Source: Escherichia coli (lineage in GTDB: Bacteria > Pseudomonadota > Gammaproteobacteria > Enterobacterales > Enterobacteriaceae). From it: a stretch of 64,000 bases of DNA. Positions 270 to 9,762 of this stretch are shown in pieces. Every line of letters begins with the position of its first letter. Within the stretch, counting starts at the first letter, position 1. A model generated the notes under the pieces. It saw nothing but the letters and a program-made list of their open reading frames with translations. It had not been told where the DNA came from and made no database searches. The stretch lies in assembly GCF_011045215.1 (NCBI RefSeq), contig NZ_CP049201.1, one strand, 5' to 3'. Position numbers and translations under genes: made by a program.

Positions 270-545
270 CTATTTAAGATAGGCACGAACCAGTTCAATA
301 GTGTCGTCAACGGATTGGCTGACTTCGCGGCTGTAGCAGTCATTTCGGTCAAACGTTTCCCGGATATGGCTTTCAAGCACTTCTGCCATCAGCCCATTAG
401 CCGCGCCCCGAACGGCAGCGATCTGTTGGAGTATGGCACGGCATTCGGCATCACCCTCCAGCGACCGTTCCAGAGCATCAATCTGCCCTCGAATACGACG
501 AACTCGAGTAAGGACCTTTTTCTTCTCTTCCGGAGTACTGGGCAT
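270..545 (-). CDS. frmR: Formaldehyde-responsive transcriptional repressor FrmR (CsoR/RcnR family)
   Basis: ORF track 270..566; translation [52 protein letters not shown] matches FrmR. Start trimmed to the MPSTPEE methionine, giving the expected 91 aa. Confidence 0.9.
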
Positions 546-571
546 TTCGCACCTCATCATCTGCATGCAAT

Positions 572-620
572 ATACTATAGGGGGGTATGCTATATGTCAA
601 TGCATACCCCCCTATAGTAT
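572..620. promoter_or_regulatory. Perfect 19-bp inverted repeat (ATACTATAGGGGGGTATGC / GCATACCCCCCTATAGTAT) with 11-bp spacer, upstream of frmR; probable FrmR operator in the frmRAB promoter
   Basis: Read directly: 572..590 is the exact reverse complement of 602..620. It lies 27-75 bp upstream of the frmR start, with a G6/C6 tract typical of CsoR/RcnR-family operators. Confidence 0.7.
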
Positions 621-704
621 ATAACACTGGAGAATAATTGTTGTCCGAAGCCTAACCAGGCGAACGGTCCCTCAAGACAGATGGGGACCGTTTATGTGCT
701 ATTT

Positions 705-1763
705 TTATGCCGCATCCGCTAAAACAAACATCCCGTAAGGATGGATTTCGAGGTAATAGTGCTCACCAATATCGGGCTGTAAACGGGTGGCGTTTACTTG
801 TAATAAAATCTCCTGTCCATGCCACTCTACGGTCACTTCGTACTGCGGCCCCATGTAGGCGACATGGCGAATAACACAACGCTGACTCTCTTCGCCGTGA
901 TTGCTTAAGGTGATGGCTTCCGGGCGAACGCCGACGGTGCCGCTACCTTGCGCCGGGAAATGCGCCGCGCGCGGCAGGCGATAACCGTAGATATCGACAT
1001 ACTCTTCGCTAAAGTTCGCCGGGAACAGGTTGGCGTCGCCCATAAAACTTGCCATAAATCGGGAGGCTGGCTGACGATAGAGATCCTGCGGTGAGCCAAT
1101 CTGCATGATGTGACCTTTATTCATCACCAGCACAGTGTCGGACACCGCGAAAGCTTCACTTTGATCGTGAGTGACGTAGAGCGACGTGATATTAAACTGC
1201 TTTTGCAGCTCGCGGATCTTATCGCGCATACTGCGGCGCAGGTTGGCATCGAGGTTACTTAACGGCTCATCAAACAGCAGCACCTTTGGCTTGAGGATCA
1301 ACGCGCGGGCCAGTGCCACACGCTGTTGCTGACCACCGGAAATCTGATCGACATAGCGGTCCTCGAAGCCTTCCAGATCCACCATTGCCAGCGCCTCCTT
1401 CACCCGCTGTTTCACTTCGCTACGCGACACGCCAAGCATCTTCAGCCCGTAGCCAACGTTTTCACCCAGCGACATATGCGGGAACAGAGCGTATGACTGA
1501 AACACCATGCAGATATCGCGCTGTTGAATGGAACGATGCGTGACATCTTCGCCATCAATAAAAATTTGCCCTTCGCTCGGTTTTTCCAGCCCGGCAACCA
1601 GACGCAAAATGGTGGTTTTGCCACAGCCGGAAGGACCGAGCAGCGTCACCATTTGCCCTTGTGGAATGGTGAGATTGATATTGTCGATAACCGTATTACT
1701 GCCGAATCGTTTAGTGACGTTGCGCAGTTCAACAAAATTTTTCTGACTCATAGTGCGCTCCAT
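705..1763 (-). CDS. afuC: ABC transporter ATP-binding protein, AfuC/FbpC-like
   Basis: 352-aa ORF with Walker [13 protein letters not shown] signature [15 protein letters not shown], Walker B LLFDEPLS and a C-terminal TOBE-like extension. Start codon overlaps the upstream permease stop (TAATG). Confidence 0.85.
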
Positions 1764-3841
1764 TACGCCTGGTTTTTGGCTTTAGAACGGGAGATACGAG
1801 CTTCTCCGATCAGCCAGTCAAAGAGGAAAATAATCGCCAGCATCACCACGATCAGAATCGAACCATAGGCGATGGCTACGCCATATTCGCCGTCTTCAAC
1901 GCGGTTAAGAATGTAGGCGGTTGCCACGCGGGTGTCCGGCGTGACGAGAAAGACGATGGCGCTGACCGTCGTGATGGCCCGCACAAAGCTGTAGATCAGG
2001 GCCGAGAGAATGGCCGGACGCAGCAGCGGCAGTAAAATGTGGGTTATGGTTCGCAAGGAACCCGCGCGCAGGCTGAGTGAGGCTTCATCCAGCGATTTGT
2101 CGATCTGCCCCAGACCCGCAATCCCGGCGCGAATACCCACCGGAACGTTACGCATCACCATCGAGATAATCACAATTGCCGCCGTTCCGGTGAGATAAAC
2201 CGGAGCGCTGTTAAAGGCAAGAATATACGAAACGCCCGCCACCGTACCCGGTACGGCAAAGCACAGCATGGTGGTGAACTCGATGGTCTTTTTGCCTTTG
2301 AATTGTTGACGCACCACCACCCAGGCGATGAGCAGGCCAAAGATAGCGGTAATGGGAGCGGCAATCCCGGCGTAGAGCAGGGTATCCAGCAGTGAAGGCC
2401 ACGCGCCGTCGCTCATTCCCTGACCAAATAGCTTGATAAAGTTATCCAGCGTCAGGGTGTAGTCCACGCCCCAGTTCACCGTGAAGCTGCCGTAGAAAAT
2501 GCTGCCGTAGAGCAGGGCGTTAAAGGCAATCCATATCGCAAGTATGGCGACCACGCTCCACACCAGGGTGACCGGTAGCGGCTGGACGTCGCCACGGTAG
2601 GATTTGCCGGAAACCGTGACGTAAGAGCGTTTACCAATCCACATATACTGGATGCAGAACACCAGCAGCGAGAACAGCAGCAGGAAAGCGCCAAGGGTGC
2701 TGGCGGCCTGATAATCCAGCTGCGAGCCGGTAATATAGAAGTAAATTTGCGTCGCCAGTACGTCGAAGTTACCGCCAAGTACCAGCGGGTTACTGAAATC
2801 AGCCAGTGACTGTACCACGACGATTAAAAAGGCATTGGCGAGTGCGGGCTTTAGCAACGGCACAAACACGCCGTTAAAGGTTTGCCAGCGGCTGGCGCGC
2901 AGGGTGTAGGAGGCCTCTTCCAGCGAGGGATGAATGGTTTTAATGGCCCCGTCGAGGATCATAAATGCCATTGGCGTGAATGCCAGAACCTGTGCCAGCC
3001 AGATCCCGGTAAAACCGTACAGCCAGTTGGTGTTGGTCAGCCCAAACCACTCCACCATAAATTCCGTAACATAGCCGGAGCGCCCCATCATGAGCGTCAC
3101 GCCTAAGCCGACCACAAACGGTGGCGTAACGATGGGCAAAATGGAAAAGATGCGACCAATAATGGCGCTGCGTTTAGCGATGCGCGTGGTATAAATCGCC
3201 AGCACCAGGCCGAAGAAAGTACAGCCTATCCCCACCGCTATCGACAAGACGATAGAGTTGACGATCACCTGAACAATATGTGCCTGCGAGAGCACGGTCA
3301 TAAACGCCAGCGGGGCGAACTCTCCCGCGTCGTTGGTGAACATCGGGATAAAAATGGCGATGCTCGGCCAGACGATAAAAATGCCAATCAGCGCCACAAT
3401 CGCAATCAGTGAGCCGATCACGAAGCGGTCGCCGCCCAGCCATTCGAGGCGGGTTAAGGCCAGCGTCATAATCGCGCCTAGTTCAACAAACAGCACGATG
3501 GCGGCGTAGCCTAAACCGCGTCCAGCCACGGTGGCGCTGATGACGATAAACGCCATACAGAGCAATGCCCAGCTGGCATCAAAATAATGACGACTACGCT
3601 GTTCGCGTGTGACCTCACGAAACGGGCGAACCAGCAACAGACTCGGTAACAAATACCACAGCCAGCTGATATTAAAATGCGACCAGCCATAAGCCTCGAG
3701 GATCTCATCACTCGTGGACTCCAGCAGGCCATAATCGAGGCTCCAGCTCGGCAACAGTATAAATGCCAGCCAGCCCAGCAAAACCCAAAGGAAAATCGCA
3801 TCCCGCTTTTTCACGGGATGGAGTGCAAGTGTCTGTGACAT
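1763..3841 (-). CDS. afuB: ABC transporter permease, fused two-domain, AfuB/FbpB-like
   Basis: ORF track 1763..3892 (709 aa, highly hydrophobic, two permease halves). The 3892 start is a TTG; the ATG at 3841 (MSQTLALHP) is more plausible. Start is uncertain by 17 codons. Confidence 0.8.
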
Positions 3842-3909
3842 AGCAGTTCCGGTATGGTTGGCCGGGGCAGGCGTTTGTGCTGCACCCGGCAAATACGCCT
3901 AATGCGGGT

Positions 3910-4941
3910 TTATTTACCCATCTTCACTTCGCTGACCCATTTATTAATCAATGCCTTACGAACATCCGTGGAACCATATTTATCCATGTCGTAGTTGATT
4001 AATTTCAGGTCGTCGAGCTTCAGCGAATTTGGCGACGTTTCGGCGGTGGTATTGGTCAGGATCTGATAAGACTTCCCTTTCTTCCACGCCAGTTCCTGAG
4101 CTTCTTTTGATAATACCCAGTCCACAAACAGTTTGGCGTTGTCGAGGTTGCGCGCGCCTTTCAGAATGCTGACGCCGCCAATTTCGTAGCCCGTACCTTC
4201 ACACGGGGAAATCAACTCCAGCGGCGCGCCCTGTTCTTTTTCCAGCGAGTAGTCATGCAGGAAGCCAATACCAATCGCCGTTTCGCCACGGGCGGCGTTA
4301 CGTGCCGGGGCTATGCCTGATTTGGTGTACTGAGAGACGTTGGCGTTCAGTTGTTTTAGATAATCAAAGGCCTGATCTTCCCCCCACAGCTGCGCAAAAG
4401 TAGCCAGGGCGGTGTAGGCAGTACCGGAACTTTGCGGATCGGCAATTTGAATTTCGCCTTTATATTCCGGTTTGGTGAGATCTTTCCAGCACTTCGGCAC
4501 CGGCAGGTTTTTCTCTTTCAGACGATCGGTGTTTACGCCAAAACCGAGGATCCCCACATAAACGGCAGAGGACAGATTCCCTTTCACTTTTGCCGGATCG
4601 CGGAATTTCTCCATGATCTGCTCAAGGTTAGGGGATTTATACGCCTGTAGCAGGCCCATCTCGCCAGCCTGCGATTGCGGGTCTAAAGTGCCGCCGTACC
4701 AGACGTCAGCCTGGGGGTTTTTCTTTTCAGCATCGACTTTTGCCAGGGTGCTTCCGGAACCGTTGCGGATAAACGAGGTTTTTACATCATATTTCTCGCC
4801 AAACGCTTTGGTTTCGGCCTCACACATTTCATTGGTGGCGCTGCAATAGACCACCAGCCGGCCTTTTGCCTGCGCGGCACCCGTTAAAGTCGCCAGCGCA
4901 ACGGCAGAAGCAATCAGAGTAGAGGTAAAGGTCATTTTCAT
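3910..4941 (-). CDS. afuA: Periplasmic substrate-binding protein of ABC transporter, AfuA/FbpA-like
   Basis: ORF track 3910..5268 trimmed to MKMTFTSTLIASAVALATLTGAAQA (signal peptide), giving 343 aa. Its ATG overlaps the stop of the upstream UhpC-like gene (ATGA at 4938..4941). Confidence 0.85.
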   Translation of the reverse strand: MKMTFTSTLIASAVALATLTGAAQAKGRLVVYCSATNEMCEAETKAFGEKYDVKTSFIRNGSGSTLAKVDAEKKNPQADVWYGGTLDPQSQAGEMGLLQAYKSPNLEQIMEKFRDPAKVKGNLSSAVYVGILGFGVNTDRLKEKNLPVPKCWKDLTKPEYKGEIQIADPQSSGTAYTALATFAQLWGEDQAFDYLKQLNANVSQYTKSGIAPARNAARGETAIGIGFLHDYSLEKEQGAPLELISPCEGTGYEIGGVSILKGARNLDNAKLFVDWVLSKEAQELAWKKGKSYQILTNTTAETSPNSLKLDDLKLINYDMDKYGSTDVRKALINKWVSEVKMGK

Positions 4942-6254
4942 TGTTTTATCCTTCGAGCGTGAGTGGTGGTGATGCCCGCCATCAGTAACGGCATCAGCAG
5001 TAAACCCATAAGTACTGCGGCGACCGAGAGTAAACTGAACATTCCCGGCCAGCCGTAGCGTTCGATGACCAGCGACAGCGGCCAGCCTGCCAGCGCCGCG
5101 CCAAGGTAAGCGAACAGGCCGAGAAATCCGGTGATTGAACCCGCCGCAGCTTTGTGCCCACACTCCACCGCCGCAAGTCCAATCAGCATTTGTGGGCCAA
5201 AGACGAAAAAGCCCACGGTAAAAAAGCACACTGCCAGCAGAGCGTAGTGATGAACCGGTGCCAGCCACAGTGCGGCGACTGACACCATCAACCCCAACGT
5301 GAACAGCAAAATCATTGGCGCTCGTTGCCCGCTAAACAGCAAATCCGATCCCCATCCGGCAAATAACGCGCCGAGTAAGCCGCCCACTTCAAACAGCATT
5401 ACCGTGGCGTTGGCGCTGAGCAGGTTGACACCGTGGCTTTCCGTCAGCCAGATATTGCCCCAGTCGTTAAGCGCAATCCGGATCACATAAACCAGTACAT
5501 AAGAGACGCCCAGTAGCCAGATCAGCGGATTTTGCAGCATGGTGGTGCGCAACATTTGCCACAGCCCCATCGGCGGACTTTGTTGTTCCTGACGTAACTC
5601 CAGCGGATCGTGACGCCAGTGACCAACTGTCGGTAATCCCTCTTCCTGGGGCGTGCCTTTGAGTTGTAGCGTTAACCAGATCCCTAATGCCATGCTGATT
5701 ATCCCCGGTGTCAGCATCGCGGCCTGCCAGCCCCACCAGTGGGCGGCAAAGGCGCTAATCAGCGGAATAATCGCTCCGCCAATGTTGATCGACATATTCC
5801 AGCAGCCCCACCAGAAACCGCGCTCATTGCGTGAGTACCAGTGGGTCAGCAAGCGGGCACACGGTGGCCATCCCCAGCCCTGAAAAAAACCGTTCAGTGT
5901 CCAGACCACAAGCAGAAGCGTAAGTGATTCGCCAAAGGCAAACACCACGTTCAATAACCCGGTGGCGAACAAGCCGACGCCCATAAAACCGCGTTGTCCG
6001 TGGCTGTCATGCCACAGTCCGGCGGTAAATTTCGACAATCCGTAGCTGAGATAAAACAGCGAACCCAGCAGGCCAATGTCGCCTTTATCCAGTCCGAGGT
6101 CGGTTTGTAGCGCCGGAAGGACGTAATTCACGCTTTTTCGCGTCAGATAAAATGCGGCGTAGCCAATAATCATGCACATCAGCAATCGCGGACGTAATGT
6201 CCGGTAGCATTGATTAATTTCTCTCGCTGAACGCGCGTGCATGGTTGTCTCCAT
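4938..6254 (-). CDS. MFS sugar-phosphate sensor/transporter, UhpC-like
   Basis: 438-aa polytopic membrane protein with organophosphate:Pi antiporter family features (G-rich TM helices, 12 predicted TM segments). Resembles UhpC/UhpT but sits in a separate locus. Confidence 0.8.
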   Translation of the reverse strand: METTMHARSAREINQCYRTLRPRLLMCMIIGYAAFYLTRKSVNYVLPALQTDLGLDKGDIGLLGSLFYLSYGLSKFTAGLWHDSHGQRGFMGVGLFATGLLNVVFAFGESLTLLLVVWTLNGFFQGWGWPPCARLLTHWYSRNERGFWWGCWNMSINIGGAIIPLISAFAAHWWGWQAAMLTPGIISMALGIWLTLQLKGTPQEEGLPTVGHWRHDPLELRQEQQSPPMGLWQMLRTTMLQNPLIWLLGVSYVLVYVIRIALNDWGNIWLTESHGVNLLSANATVMLFEVGGLLGALFAGWGSDLLFSGQRAPMILLFTLGLMVSVAALWLAPVHHYALLAVCFFTVGFFVFGPQMLIGLAAVECGHKAAAGSITGFLGLFAYLGAALAGWPLSLVIERYGWPGMFSLLSVAAVLMGLLLMPLLMAGITTTHARRIKQ

Positions 6255-6326
6255 GTTGCTGACTATATGAAAATGAAAGTGAAAGGGGATGAGAGAAAAT
6301 CCGGGATACCTAAGACTTTTTCCTGG

Positions 6327-7868
6327 TTATCCGGCGATTTGTTGCAAAAATGTGGGCAAGTTAACAATTACCCGCGTGCCGTGCTGTTTTTCGAGCGTTA
6401 AGTCGCCGCCCAGGGCGCTGACGCGCTCACGCATCCCCTGAATGCCAAATCCGGCCATTTTCCCGCTGGCGATCCCCACACCGTTGTCGCTGACTTCCAG
6501 ATGCAATACCTCTCCCTGCTGGCGCAGGATAATCGTCACTTCGCTGGCTTCGGCGTGTTTACAGATGTTATTGAGCAACTCCTGCAATAACCGATACAAG
6601 GTAAAGCGCACCGTTTCGTTTTCTGGTGTGGAGTTCAGTTGATAGGCAAACTGGCAATGAATGCCGCGTTCACTAAAGGCAAATTCATTAATCAGATGCA
6701 ACAACGCTTCGCGAAATGTCAGTTCATCAAGCGCGGGAGGCCGCAACTGGCGTAGCAATTGGCGGGTGGAGAGATGAATGCGGCGGGCGAGCTCATTGAT
6801 TTGGCTGGCTGCGGATTGAATTTGCGCCGGATCACGCGCCCGCTTCACCAGTTGCGACTGGATCTGAATGGCGGTGATGTTCTGACCGATTTCGTCGTGC
6901 AGCTCTCGCGCCAGGTTTTTTCGCGTGTCCTCCTCGGTGTGGATCAGCTTTTCCGCCAATGCCCGCCGCGCTGCCAGCTCGGCCTCCAGCCGTTGTCGGT
7001 AATGGTGCAGGTTTAGCGCCAGATGTTGCTGGCGACTGATGGCAATGCCCAGGCCAATTCCCAGCAAGGCCTGGGTCGCGAGGAAAATCTCCAGCTCCAC
7101 CAGGTTACTAAAGCCCACGCCAATCTGGCGGGCGATGGTGATCATCATGCTGCCCAAAAGCCCGGAGAGTACGCCACCTTGCCAGCCAAATTTCCACGCC
7201 ATCACCACATTGGGCAAAAAGACCACGATCAACAGCAGACGTTCAATTTCAGGTGACAGCACCATCTGAGTGCCGATACCAATAATAAAAAACAGGCTAC
7301 ACCAGATGATTAAAGAGGTACGCAAGGGGGGATTATGCGTATCGAGTCCCAGGAGCTGGTAGCGATGCTGCTGGCGCAGAAACTCAAAGATAAGATAGAC
7401 AAACGGCGTCAGTAATACGCCGCCGGTAAATGAGGTCAAACCCGGCAGCATTATTGGGCCCGACATAAAAGGGGAGAGCAGGGCGGTATTCAACAATGAA
7501 GCTGCCGTGACAGTGGCTAACAGCAACGTCAGACGCTGCCAGTAAAGTGGAAAACGGTGCCAGAAGTTTTGCGCAAGGAGGACAGGAAACAGGCTAATAA
7601 CCGGCGTTGCCAGCATGAGATAACCGTTCAATAGCTGTTCACTATGGAGCCAGAACATCATCAGCAAAGGGGGGAGCACCAACGCAGGCCAGTAGCGGCG
7701 AGAGAGCAAAATAACAAGGGCGAGATAAACTCCCTGAGGGAGAAACAACACTGCCTGTTGACCGTTATTGGTCAGATAAAAGCTGAGCGTCCACAGCATC
7801 AGCCAGCCGGTTCCCCAGGCCAGCACAATAAACAGCGAAATCACCCAATGACGAAGATTGCGCGACAT
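6327..7868 (-). CDS. Sensor histidine kinase, UhpB-like (MASE1 membrane domain + HisKA_3/HATPase)
   Basis: 513 aa; N-terminal multi-TM region, H-box ELHDEIGQN and NarX/UhpB-type ATPase motifs (DNGVGI, GFGIQGMRERV). Confidence 0.85.
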   Translation of the reverse strand: MSRNLRHWVISLFIVLAWGTGWLMLWTLSFYLTNNGQQAVLFLPQGVYLALVILLSRRYWPALVLPPLLMMFWLHSEQLLNGYLMLATPVISLFPVLLAQNFWHRFPLYWQRLTLLLATVTAASLLNTALLSPFMSGPIMLPGLTSFTGGVLLTPFVYLIFEFLRQQHRYQLLGLDTHNPPLRTSLIIWCSLFFIIGIGTQMVLSPEIERLLLIVVFLPNVVMAWKFGWQGGVLSGLLGSMMITIARQIGVGFSNLVELEIFLATQALLGIGLGIAISRQQHLALNLHHYRQRLEAELAARRALAEKLIHTEEDTRKNLARELHDEIGQNITAIQIQSQLVKRARDPAQIQSAASQINELARRIHLSTRQLLRQLRPPALDELTFREALLHLINEFAFSERGIHCQFAYQLNSTPENETVRFTLYRLLQELLNNICKHAEASEVTIILRQQGEVLHLEVSDNGVGIASGKMAGFGIQGMRERVSALGGDLTLEKQHGTRVIVNLPTFLQQIAG

Positions 7869-8497
7869 TAATGCCCCGCCAGCAGATGGTGGTCGAGCGC
7901 AAAATGTACCAGTTCAATGGTGCTATGGCAGTTCAGTTTTCCCAGCACATTGGCGCGATGCACATGTACCGTTTTATGACTGAGTTCGAGTTTAAAGGCG
8001 ATCTCTTTAACGCTGTCTCCTTTGACCAGTAAATCAAACACTTCACGTTCTCGTGGGGTGAGAATTTCTAGCGCCTGGGCGGGTTGCCCGCCGCCGCGTA
8101 AAGCCCGAATCGCATCGGCACAGAGATAATGCCCGCCCAGCCCGACCGAGCGCACCGCCTGTACTAACTCTTCCGGCCCACAGCGTTTGGTTAAATACCC
8201 GCTGGCACCAGCATCCAGCGCGCTTTGCACAAAGGTTGGCGCGTCATAAATGCTAAGAATAATGGCGCGAAATTGCGGTTTTTGTGCACGCAGGCGCTTA
8301 AGCAAACTGAGGCCGTTTTCGTCCGGCATGGCAATATCAATGACGGCAACATTGACGTCATCACGGATTAATGCCGACCATGCCTGCGCGGCACTACTGT
8401 ACTGACCAATGACCTCCAGATCGTCTTCCAGAGAGAGTAATTGTGCGAAGCCAGAGCGCACCACCACATGGTCATCCACCAGCACTACCCGAATCAT
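7868..8497 (-). CDS. Response regulator, UhpA-like (REC + LuxR-type HTH)
   Basis: 209 aa; MIRVVLVDDHVVVRSGFAQLL receiver domain and C-terminal LuxR HTH (KEIAFKLELSHKTVHVHRANVLGKL). Stop overlaps the kinase start by 1 nt. Confidence 0.85.
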   Translation of the reverse strand: MIRVVLVDDHVVVRSGFAQLLSLEDDLEVIGQYSSAAQAWSALIRDDVNVAVIDIAMPDENGLSLLKRLRAQKPQFRAIILSIYDAPTFVQSALDAGASGYLTKRCGPEELVQAVRSVGLGGHYLCADAIRALRGGGQPAQALEILTPREREVFDLLVKGDSVKEIAFKLELSHKTVHVHRANVLGKLNCHSTIELVHFALDHHLLAGH

Positions 8498-8799
8498 ACT
8501 TTTCTTCTCTTATTATCTAATTCTCCTATCATGCATCACGGCGCGGCGCTGGCAATCAACCAGCGACAGATATGGAATGGATGTAACAAAATGGCAATAA
8601 TTTGCCGGAGCGCACACATCTTATCTGGCTTGTGAACCGGCGGGATACGTTCGCCAAAACCGCAAAATGCGCAAACTCGCTAACCATTGCCGATTTTTTT
8701 CTAAAAACGCTTTGTTCTTAACAAGACCTTTTAATTCCTTTATCAAACTGACCCGCAACGAAATACTGCTCCCATAACAAGACAGGGGAGCAGACAATC

Positions 8800-9762
8800 A
8801 TGGCAATTTCATCGCGTAACACTCTTCTTGCCGCACTGGCATTCATCGCTTTTCAGGCGCAGGCGGTGAACGTCACCGTGGCGTATCAAACCTCAGCCGA
8901 ACCGGCGAAAGTGGCTCAGGCTGATAACACCTTTGCCAAAGAGAGCGGGGCGAACGTGGACTGGCGCAAGTTTGACAGCGGAGCCAGCATCGTGCGGGCG
9001 CTGGCTTCAGGCGATGTGCAAATCGGCAACCTCGGTTCCAGCCCGTTAGCGGTTGCAGCCAGCCAACAGGTGCCGATTGAAGTCTTCTTGCTGGCGTCAA
9101 AACTGGGTAACTCCGAAGCGCTGGTGGTAAAGAAAACTATCAGCAAACCCGAGGATCTGATTGGCAAACGCATCGCAGTGCCGTTTATCTCCACCACCCA
9201 CTACAGCCTGCTGGCGGCGCTGAAACACTGGGGCATTAAACCCGGGCAAGTGGAGATTGTGAACCTGCAGCCGCCCGCGATTATCGCTGCCTGGCAGCGG
9301 GGAGATATTGATGGTGCTTATGTCTGGGCACCGGCGGTTAACGCCCTGGAAAAAGACGGCAAGGTGTTGACCGATTCTGAACAGGTCGGGCAGTGGGGCG
9401 CGCCAACGCTGGACGTTTGGGTGGTGCGCAAAGATTTTGCCGAGAAACATCCTGAGGTCGTGAAAGCGTTCGCTAAAAGCGCCATCGATGCTCAGCAACC
9501 GTACATTGCTAACCCAGACGTGTGGCTGAAACAGCCGGAAAACATCAGCAAACTGGCGCGTTTAAGCGGCGTGCCTGAAGGTGACGTTCCGGGGCTGGTG
9601 AAGGGGAATACCTATCTGACGCCGCAGCAACAAACGGCAGAACTGACCGGACCGGTGAACAAAGCGATCATCGACACCGCGCAGTTTTTGAAAGAGCAGG
9701 GCAAGGTCCCGGCTGTAGCGAATGATTACAGCCAGTACGTTACCTCGCGCTTCGTGCAATAA
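8800..9762 (+). CDS. tauA: Taurine ABC transporter periplasmic binding protein
   Basis: 320-aa ORF with signal peptide, matching TauA; followed by tauBCD in the canonical order. Confidence 0.92.
   Translation: MAISSRNTLLAALAFIAFQAQAVNVTVAYQTSAEPAKVAQADNTFAKESGANVDWRKFDSGASIVRALASGDVQIGNLGSSPLAVAASQQVPIEVFLLASKLGNSEALVVKKTISKPEDLIGKRIAVPFISTTHYSLLAALKHWGIKPGQVEIVNLQPPAIIAAWQRGDIDGAYVWAPAVNALEKDGKVLTDSEQVGQWGAPTLDVWVVRKDFAEKHPEVVKAFAKSAIDAQQPYIANPDVWLKQPENISKLARLSGVPEGDVPGLVKGNTYLTPQQQTAELTGPVNKAIIDTAQFLKEQGKVPAVANDYSQYVTSRFVQ

Follow-up and report, generated by a model that had tools for sequence, protein, structure and literature searches.

This analysis concerns a run of six minus-strand genes in a 64,000-nucleotide stretch of Escherichia coli DNA (contig NZ_CP049201.1, assembly GCF_011045215.1; hereafter the window), and how those genes are grouped into transcription units. 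The genes occupy positions 705..8497 and are flanked by frmR and tauA in the RefSeq annotations of EC974, Sakai and EDL933, which list afuC (fbpC), an ATP-binding cassette (ABC) permease, an ABC binding protein, a "uhpC", a MASE1 histidine kinase and a response regulator. This is the OI-20 island, with 99% nucleotide identity to O157:H7 Sakai (99.1% for the window strain) and proteins 99.0-100% identical to Sakai ECs_0413-0418. In the published nomenclature the kinase is FusK (Z0462), the regulator FusR (Z0463), the major facilitator superfamily (MFS) protein Z0461, and the importer AfuABC (PMC4546632, PMC6199705). The window comes from a non-O157 strain; the locus is the same as in O157:H7, with the same position between frmR and tauA and with gene coordinates and overlaps in agreement. 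Bases 600-8900 were matched over at least 80% of their length in 518 of 5,426 complete E. coli genomes. The cluster also occurs in at least 75 other Enterobacterales species, contradicting a 2024 review (PMC11644481) that restricts it to O157.

For comparison, 80 loci, each from a different Enterobacterales species, were retrieved with an AfuA alignment, and junctions were measured in 75 of them; the counts of junctions below refer to these 75. Wherever the flanking sequence suffices (about 75 species), the genes run regulator-kinase-MFS-afuA-afuB-afuC. The features of the window are collected in Table 1.

Table 1. Features of the OI-20 locus in the window, in order of position.
Feature	Position	Strand	Basis
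Hairpin CGGTCCC...GGGACCG, 15 nt past the afuC stop, no U-run	665..690	-	sequence
afuC (fbpC), ABC ATPase, 348 aa	705..1751	-	NCBIfam NF008513, 699 bits; PGAP
afuB stop TAA (1765..1763), GGAG (1761..1758), afuC ATG (1751..1749)	1749..1765	-	sequence, profile, PGAP
afuB, fused double permease, 692 aa	1763..3841	-	RefSeq; tblastn residues 1-692 aligned in nearly all loci
REP-like hairpin GCCGGGT...CCCCGGC in the afuA-afuB spacer	3861..3890	-	centroid hairpin, -19.3 kcal/mol
afuA, periplasmic sugar-phosphate-binding protein, 343 aa	3910..4941	-	RefSeq and homologues
Weak internal start site within afuA	4103	-	EDL933 441537(-), signal 1.5-7 against up to 423 for the main site
ATGA 4-nt overlap of afuA ATG (4941..4939) and Z0461 stop TGA (4940..4938)	4938..4941	-	sequence and RefSeq
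AAGGA Shine-Dalgarno of afuA, within the Z0461 3' end, 7 nt 5' of the start	4949..4953	-	sequence
Z0461 / ECs_0416, UhpC-like MFS protein, 434 aa (438 aa from ATG 6254)	4938..6242	-	NCBIfam and RefSeq
GGAG Shine-Dalgarno of Z0461, 6 nt 5' of ATG 6242	6249..6252	-	conserved in all aligned spacers
Z0461-afuABC transcription start site	6254	-	Cappable-seq, EDL933 443688(-)
-10 hexamer TATAGT (-13 to -8), no -35	6262..6267	-	conserved TAnnnT; bTSSfinder box10 tatagt for 443688
TCTCAT box, 21 nt 5' of the -10	6289..6294	-	comparison
Imperfect 17-bp dyad, centre -64, putative response-regulator site	6310..6326	-	conserved in alignment
CRP-like site, centre about -104, within the fusK 3' end	6351..6366	-	8 of 10 consensus half-site positions
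fusK / Z0462, UhpB-like sensor histidine kinase, MASE1 domain, 513 aa	6327..7868	-	ORF and RefSeq
TAATG 1-nt stop/start overlap, fusR/fusK	7866..7870	-	sequence
fusR / Z0463, UhpA-like response regulator, 209 aa	7868..8497	-	ORF and RefSeq CDS
fusR promoter TTGCCA-16-CATGAT (promoter-like match 8555..8528)	8521..8555	-	consensus scan and Cappable-seq
ORF, open reading frame; CDS, coding sequence; PGAP, Prokaryotic Genome Annotation Pipeline; REP, repetitive extragenic palindromic.

The spacer between fusK and Z0461 is 84 nt long when counted to the conserved ATG at 6242, as annotated in Sakai and EC974, and 72 nt when counted to an ATG at 6254, as annotated in EDL933 RefSeq; in 70 of the 75 loci it measures 83-90 nt. 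Elements found in uhpT promoters are present in and beside it. The distal CRP-like site, TGTTAACTTGCCCACA, occurs at the identical position in 72 of 72 island loci; at a fixed position, eight or more matches would arise by chance about 0.1% of the time. In uhpT itself, CRP sits at -103 (PMC5352689). The dyad, CCAGGAAAAAGTCTTAG, is kept across an alignment of 70 spacers, several genera having it in perfect form (CCAGGAATAATTCCTGG), and a dyad element is found at the matching position in the uhpT promoters of our four canonical comparison loci (K-12, Enterobacter kobei, Plesiomonas and Vibrio vulnificus). Another conserved block among the 70 distinct spacers is TCTCATCC. The motif TCTCAT[CG]C is present in the spacer of 68 of the 75 loci, and the canonical uhpT promoters have TCTCA(T/G), likewise 21 nt before the -10. 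The layout dyad-N16-TCTCA(T/G)-N21-(-10) of canonical uhpT is thus matched in the island by dyad-N15-TCTCAT-N21-(-10), with the dyad and the box one nucleotide closer together.

A weight matrix built from the four canonical uhpT promoters only was run over both strands of the whole window. Its single top match, 6326..6262 on the minus strand, scored +10.0, with the runner-up at -8.8 and a background of -72 (standard deviation 14.5). A consensus scan of 500..8900 for promoters and terminators gave no enrichment (5 promoter-like sites against 6.2 expected), and it overlooked the real promoter, which lacks a -35 hexamer. Taken together, the distal CRP-like site, the dyad near -64, the proximal box and a -10 without a -35, all fixed by an experimental start site, support the presence of a uhpT-type promoter in the 84-nt spacer. 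An earlier note, made from the sequence of the window alone, had suggested an internal promoter in a 72-nt gap at 6255..6326. The promoter is borne out by its layout and start site; the size is not, as the gap is 84 nt from the conserved ATG.

The start site comes from Cappable-seq of EDL933, in which 443688(-) is assigned to RS02125 in 7 of 8 conditions (PMC10469882, supplementary tables). Its signal was 11.8 in exponential LB, 61.7 in exponential M9, and strongest, at 422.9, in stationary M9 (PMC10469882). Base-by-base mapping places 443688 on the A of ATGGAG at window position 6254, the very A of the ATG that the earlier note had used as the start of the MFS gene. Gene-specific start sites for afuA, afuB, afuC (RS02120, RS02115, RS02110) or the kinase are not listed in the Cappable-seq tables. 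Besides the site in afuA, weak internal signals lie within afuC and the kinase gene, and two signals inside Z0461, 443185 and 443222, are flagged as degradation products. The pattern is that of a single operon, with one start site ahead of the first gene and only weak internal signals downstream. An antisense start site was seen in 8 of 8 conditions at window position 6281 on the plus strand (EDL933 443715 +), 27 nt from the main site. It is directed into the 3' end of the kinase gene and makes a divergent pair within the promoter.

Expression data from two further studies show these genes rising together. In Sakai at glucose exhaustion, ECs0416 and afuA were both induced, afuA 37-fold (PMC2241611), which fits the CRP-like site. 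In EDL933 grown in bovine gut contents, RS02110 to RS02125 were all up by 2-4.7-fold (PMC6199705 supplement).

The ATG at 6254 was rejected as the start of Z0461. Its A is where the mRNA begins, and it is confined to E. coli, unlike the conserved GGAG and ATG 6242. RefSeq is inconsistent on this point, with the long form in EDL933 and the short form in Sakai and EC974. In E. coli the mRNA begins with an AUG in frame with Z0461, so a leaderless protein of 438 aa could accompany the 434-aa product led by the Shine-Dalgarno sequence.

The junction between Z0461 and afuA is the one at which start and stop codons do overlap. On the minus strand it reads ...AAGGATAAAACAATGAAAATG. The ATGA overlap reported by the earlier note is real: it is read directly from the sequence, PGAP gives the identical 4-nt overlap in EC974, Sakai and EDL933, and the afuA start is conserved. 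In 14 aligned homologues M1 is invariant and K2 nearly so, and almost all of these proteins are 343 aa long. The overlap is also a routine, already annotated feature of a known island. Its distribution is narrow. The distance from the MFS gene to afuA is -4 in 23 loci, -1 in 8, +4 to +20 in 30, +35 to +60 in 12, and about +160 in 2, so that the genes are tightly spaced (-4 to +20 nt) in 61 of 75 species. The overlap is a trait of one subclade (E. coli, Citrobacter, Klebsiella/Raoultella, Serratia marcescens and relatives); what is general is the tight junction and the Shine-Dalgarno sequence of afuA, AAGGA or AAGGG 7-9 nt upstream of the start in every lineage, kept in all 75 loci whether the genes overlap or not. 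The spacers of about +160 belong to two Yersinia loci (L080 and L083, about 6840-7000; 157-160 nt against at most 60 elsewhere), and they hold no copy of the dyad or of TCTCAT. A search for a second dyad or TCTCAT copy in the longer MFS-afuA spacers of other genera found none.

Ribosomes are well known to reinitiate after termination at the ATGA junctions of E. coli operons. Translational coupling of Z0461 and afuA is possible, at most in part. The presence of the overlap in just 31 of 75 species means that coupling cannot be essential, and it is not required because afuA has its own conserved Shine-Dalgarno sequence. Overlaps of this kind are also common: 5 of 30 same-strand neighbour pairs in the 45 kb around the Sakai locus share 4 nt (mhpD/F, mhpF/E, tauB/C, tauC/D and MFS/afuA).

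The other two junctions downstream are of a different type. The earlier note had chained all four genes by start/stop overlaps and had read this as translational coupling of the whole unit; the chain breaks at two of its three junctions, and coupling across four genes is not supported. Between afuA and afuB lies a 68-nt spacer (3909..3842) with no overlap, and this spacer is 53-191 nt long across the 75 loci. The start of afuB was taken as ATG 3841, on the strength of RefSeq and of tblastn across loci, and the TTG at 3892 in the list of open reading frames was rejected. The spacer contains a hairpin found in nearly all species with differing stems, 3 of 7 base pairs showing compensatory changes in a 41-sequence alignment. 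An Rfam scan at E of 1 or below gave sub-threshold matches only, among them a weak match of this spacer to the REP-derived naRNA4 (E = 0.15, 26.9 bits against a cut-off of 59.5). The whole spacer folds no better than its shuffles (z = -0.91), so the hairpin is supported by its conservation across species alone. REP elements are known in the malE-malF and hisJ-hisQ intergenic regions. By analogy with these, the hairpin probably raises AfuA output relative to AfuBC; RNA-seq base means of 261, 154 and 116 for afuA, afuB and afuC are weakly consistent with this. Variants of the spacer were noted at loci L004, L009 and L047 (about 8030-8170): in some Citrobacter it is lengthened to 136-139 nt and holds two REP-like units, and in Atlantibacter and Buttiauxella a T-run comes after the hairpin, resembling an attenuator.

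At the afuB/afuC junction, the earlier note had the afuC ATG share a base with the afuB stop at 1763. The letters TAATG are present (ATG within 1765..1761), but the start was mis-assigned, and ATG 1751 is favoured. That ATG has GGAG 6 nt upstream and is the choice of PGAP in three strains, and in the long afuC reading frame the NCBIfam FbpC profile is first matched at residue 5. In sister clades the sequence is TAAcGGAG, with the upstream ATG gone and the GGAG and downstream ATG retained. The true gap is 11 nt; it is 4-25 nt in all but two loci, and the conserved start never overlaps the stop. The hairpin beyond afuC is a probable transcript end, judged by sequence.

AfuABC imports glucose 6-phosphate (G6P), fructose 6-phosphate (F6P) and sedoheptulose 7-phosphate (S7P), and H205, D206 and E229 are its sugar-binding residues (PMC4546632). 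The AfuA of the window, 100% identical to Sakai ECs_0415, has the sugar-coordinating His-Asp...Glu motif as H229, D230 and E253, invariant in our alignment. These would be the same residues under a constant numbering offset of 24.

At the upstream end of the locus, the fusR product is 99.5% identical to Sakai ECs_0418, and its top NCBIfam match is UhpA (193 bits, under the cut-off of 258). Its recognition helix, S-x-KTVHVHRAN, is the same as that of canonical UhpA (comparison locus L003, 7137..7727). Both systems are present in the E. coli of the window, and with identical recognition helices and similar target dyads cross-talk is possible between them. The fusK product matches UhpB of NCBIfam at 382 bits, under the cut-off of 408. 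Identities of 35-39% to UhpB for the kinase and 49-51% to UhpA for the regulator mark the two as paralogues of the canonical proteins. The regulator-to-kinase distance is -1 in 59 of 75 species. Two start sites, EDL933 445955 and 446045, are assigned to RS02135 in 8 of 8 conditions in Cappable-seq; by collinearity with EDL933 they lie at window positions 8521 and 8611, the former 7 nt past the promoter-like -10.

A few distances in the comparative sample are aberrant: regulator-to-kinase 480 and afuB-to-afuC 719 in Leclercia adecarboxylata NCTC13032 (L029), kinase-to-MFS 278 in L013, and 419 and 511 in L075. These values suggest frameshifts, pseudogenes or insertions. Outside the island, the frmRAB promoter (TTGACA/TAGTAT; window 572..632, minus strand) contains a long near-perfect inverted repeat, TATACTATAGGGGGGTATGC...GCATACCCCCCTATAGTATA, presumably the FrmR operator.

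The Z0461 protein, 100% identical to that of Sakai, is a UhpC by profile (NCBIfam NF008661, 587.7 bits, above the cut-off of 564). It is 50-56% identical to canonical UhpC of four species (53% for K-12) and 29-36% (about 31%) identical to UhpT. At the positions of UhpT K294, D388 and K391 it has UhpC-type residues, and it keeps the equivalents of R46 and R275. In all, 65 alignment columns are common to the MFS protein and UhpC and differ from invariant UhpT residues. Its gene accompanies the MASE1 kinase and the regulator in every complete locus. The protein is most likely a UhpC-like, ligand-sensing partner of the MASE1 kinase, to judge from its sequence. The earlier note had deduced from the overlap that it is a co-sensor and not an independent transporter; homology to UhpC makes the role plausible, and the overlap gives no basis for it.

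The locus shares much with the canonical uhpABC-uhpT locus of K-12: the regulator/kinase/MFS triple, the 1-nt regulator/kinase overlap, the MASE1 kinase and the identical recognition helix. The target promoters agree too: that of K-12 uhpT lacks a -35, has its CRP site near -103 and its dyad at -64, and places a TCTCA box 21 nt 5' of the -10. With 51% (regulator), 38% (kinase) and 53% (MFS) identity to their K-12 counterparts, the proteins of the island are paralogues. The regulated promoter of the island lies between kinase and MFS gene, in an 84-nt gap that is 9 nt in K-12, and its placement there assigns the UhpC-like gene to the regulated unit. The island unit controls an ABC importer; K-12 controls the UhpT antiporter. 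The importer has the gene order of AfuABC from Actinobacillus pleuropneumoniae and Citrobacter rodentium (binding protein, fused double permease, ATPase), with the sugar-binding residues invariant. The A. pleuropneumoniae afuABC was studied on its own, whereas the island importer is preceded by the overlapping UhpC-like gene. As in malEFG and hisJQMP, a GC-rich palindrome separates the binding-protein and permease genes; in some genera the island hairpin is followed by an attenuator-like T-run.

The best explanation of these findings is that the locus consists of two minus-strand transcription units, fusR-fusK and Z0461-afuABC, the latter driven from a uhpT-type promoter at 6254, and we consider this arrangement likely. 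The first unit would encode a UhpA/UhpB paralogue pair, transcribed from 8521 and 8611 and joined by TAATG in the manner of uhpA-uhpB. The second, Z0461-afuA-afuB-afuC, would start at 6254, its promoter taking up the 84-nt spacer past fusK. Because the recognition helix of the island regulator is identical to that of UhpA, this regulator most likely binds the dyad, and it would control the 6254 promoter jointly with cAMP-CRP. Z0461 and AfuABC would then be placed under positive feedback, with Z0461 sensing ligand for the MASE1 kinase. Within the unit, the ATGA of the Z0461 stop and afuA start would be a case of common tight packing that permits termination-reinitiation coupling. The REP-like hairpin past afuA probably protects the upstream mRNA, which would yield more binding protein than permease, and afuC would follow afuB after 11 nt from its own GGAG. 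The earlier note had proposed that the MFS protein and the ABC importer are expressed as one unit; synteny, the start site and co-induction all support this, and the overlap by itself is no proof of it.

A more far-reaching version, which we hold only tentatively, is that FusK, FusR and Z0461 form a complete UhpABC paralogue whose native output is Z0461-afuABC, whose native signal is G6P, F6P or S7P perceived through the UhpC-like protein, and for which the response to fucose is secondary or indirect. The published G6P test reportedly used FusK without Z0461. A negative result with FusK alone would be explained because UhpB needs UhpC for G6P sensing. Several observations weigh against the picture we favour. 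Pacheco 2012, as cited in PMC6199705 and PMC11644481, is reported to have found fucose to be the signal of FusKR, z0461 to be repressed by it, and the use of fucose to be aided by z0461; repression and a fucose ligand are opposite in sign to UhpA at uhpT and differ in ligand. The start site at 6254 was also used in media to which neither sugar phosphate nor fucose had been added, and an inducer may therefore not be needed. The kinase and regulator fall below the UhpB and UhpA equivalog cut-offs of NCBIfam, although these are their best matches. The overlap is confined to 31 of the 75 species, with gaps of 4-160 nt in the other 44. There is also the start site inside afuA, weak as it is, and the missing gene-specific start sites are merely consistent with one continuous mRNA from Z0461 to afuC.

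How much meaning should be attached to the ATGA overlap depends on how the downstream genes are translated and transcribed. It may well be incidental compaction, with the genes co-transcribed, afuA translated independently from its own Shine-Dalgarno sequence, and no regulatory meaning, and we rate this only a little short of an even chance. With gene order unchanged, the gap is 4-60 nt in sister clades and about 160 nt in Yersinia, and both the Shine-Dalgarno sequence in every lineage and the frequency of 4-nt overlaps among nearby pairs agree with this reading; on the other side, reinitiation at ATGA is known in E. coli, and some coupling is likely once ribosomes reach the Z0461 stop. It is improbable that afuABC forms an operon apart, transcribed from a promoter in the 3' part of Z0461, the overlap reflecting tight spacing only. 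PMC4546632 handles afuABC as the operon, Actinobacillus carries afuABC alone (PMC4546632), Yersinia has its long spacer ahead of afuA, and a weak start site does exist inside afuA. Against these stand the lack of any minus-strand Cappable-seq site between 441537 and 443185, the degradation flags on 443185 and 443222, the consensus scan, which gave no promoter-like site there, and the joint rise of ECs0416 and afuA.

The roles of Z0461 and of the spacer can also be read otherwise. We think it unlikely that the main work of the UhpC-like protein is to transport fucose or a hexose phosphate beside AfuABC, with no part in sensing. The regulated promoter precedes its gene, which takes the place of uhpT in the canonical locus and differs in this from canonical uhpC; this counts against a co-sensor, as does the treatment of Z0461 as an aid to fucose import in PMC6199705, where, with Pacheco 2012 cited, it is described as giving optimal import. 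Both arginines required for transport are kept, and in Chlamydia a UhpC-like protein does transport G6P (Schwoppe 2002, listed among the references of PMC4546632). The protein nonetheless groups with UhpC and not UhpT, with the UhpC-shared columns including UhpT D388 and K391, and the kinase and regulator stand alongside it in every complete locus. UhpB-type MASE1 kinases have no periplasmic sensor domain and need UhpC (PMC4790336), and a second sugar-phosphate carrier would be redundant beside a high-affinity ABC importer. Similarly doubtful is the idea that the conserved spacer, in place of a UhpA-style site of activation, is an operator through which FusR represses z0461. Repression of z0461 and of the fuc genes by FusKR is reported in PMC6199705, with z0461 expression changed in fusK and fusR mutants in keeping with repression, and FusR represses ler (PMC11644481). 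However, a dyad at -64, a box near -40 and no -35 match an activator-dependent promoter and uhpT, and a repressor site would be expected over the -10 or the start site. Repression also does not exclude activation, as the phosphorylated and unphosphorylated regulator could act differently.

The overlap itself is of little weight, and the operon and promoter ideas rest on much stronger evidence than the overlap. Two start codons are corrected by this work, that of afuC and that of the MFS gene in the EDL933 annotation. The O157:H7 OI-20 literature (Pacheco 2012; Sit 2015, PMC4546632) handles fusKR, z0461 and afuABC as separate items, and in its searchable part we found no description of z0461-afuABC as a single unit with a uhpT-type promoter, or of FusKR and Z0461 as resembling a full Uhp paralogue that drives this unit. 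Such a resemblance would make sugar phosphates a candidate for the real signal. The afuABC unit probably begins with Z0461 and is under a promoter whose layout is homologous to that of uhpT. The "fucose sensor" FusKR of enterohaemorrhagic E. coli would thereby be tied directly to sugar-phosphate uptake, a colonisation factor of C. rodentium.

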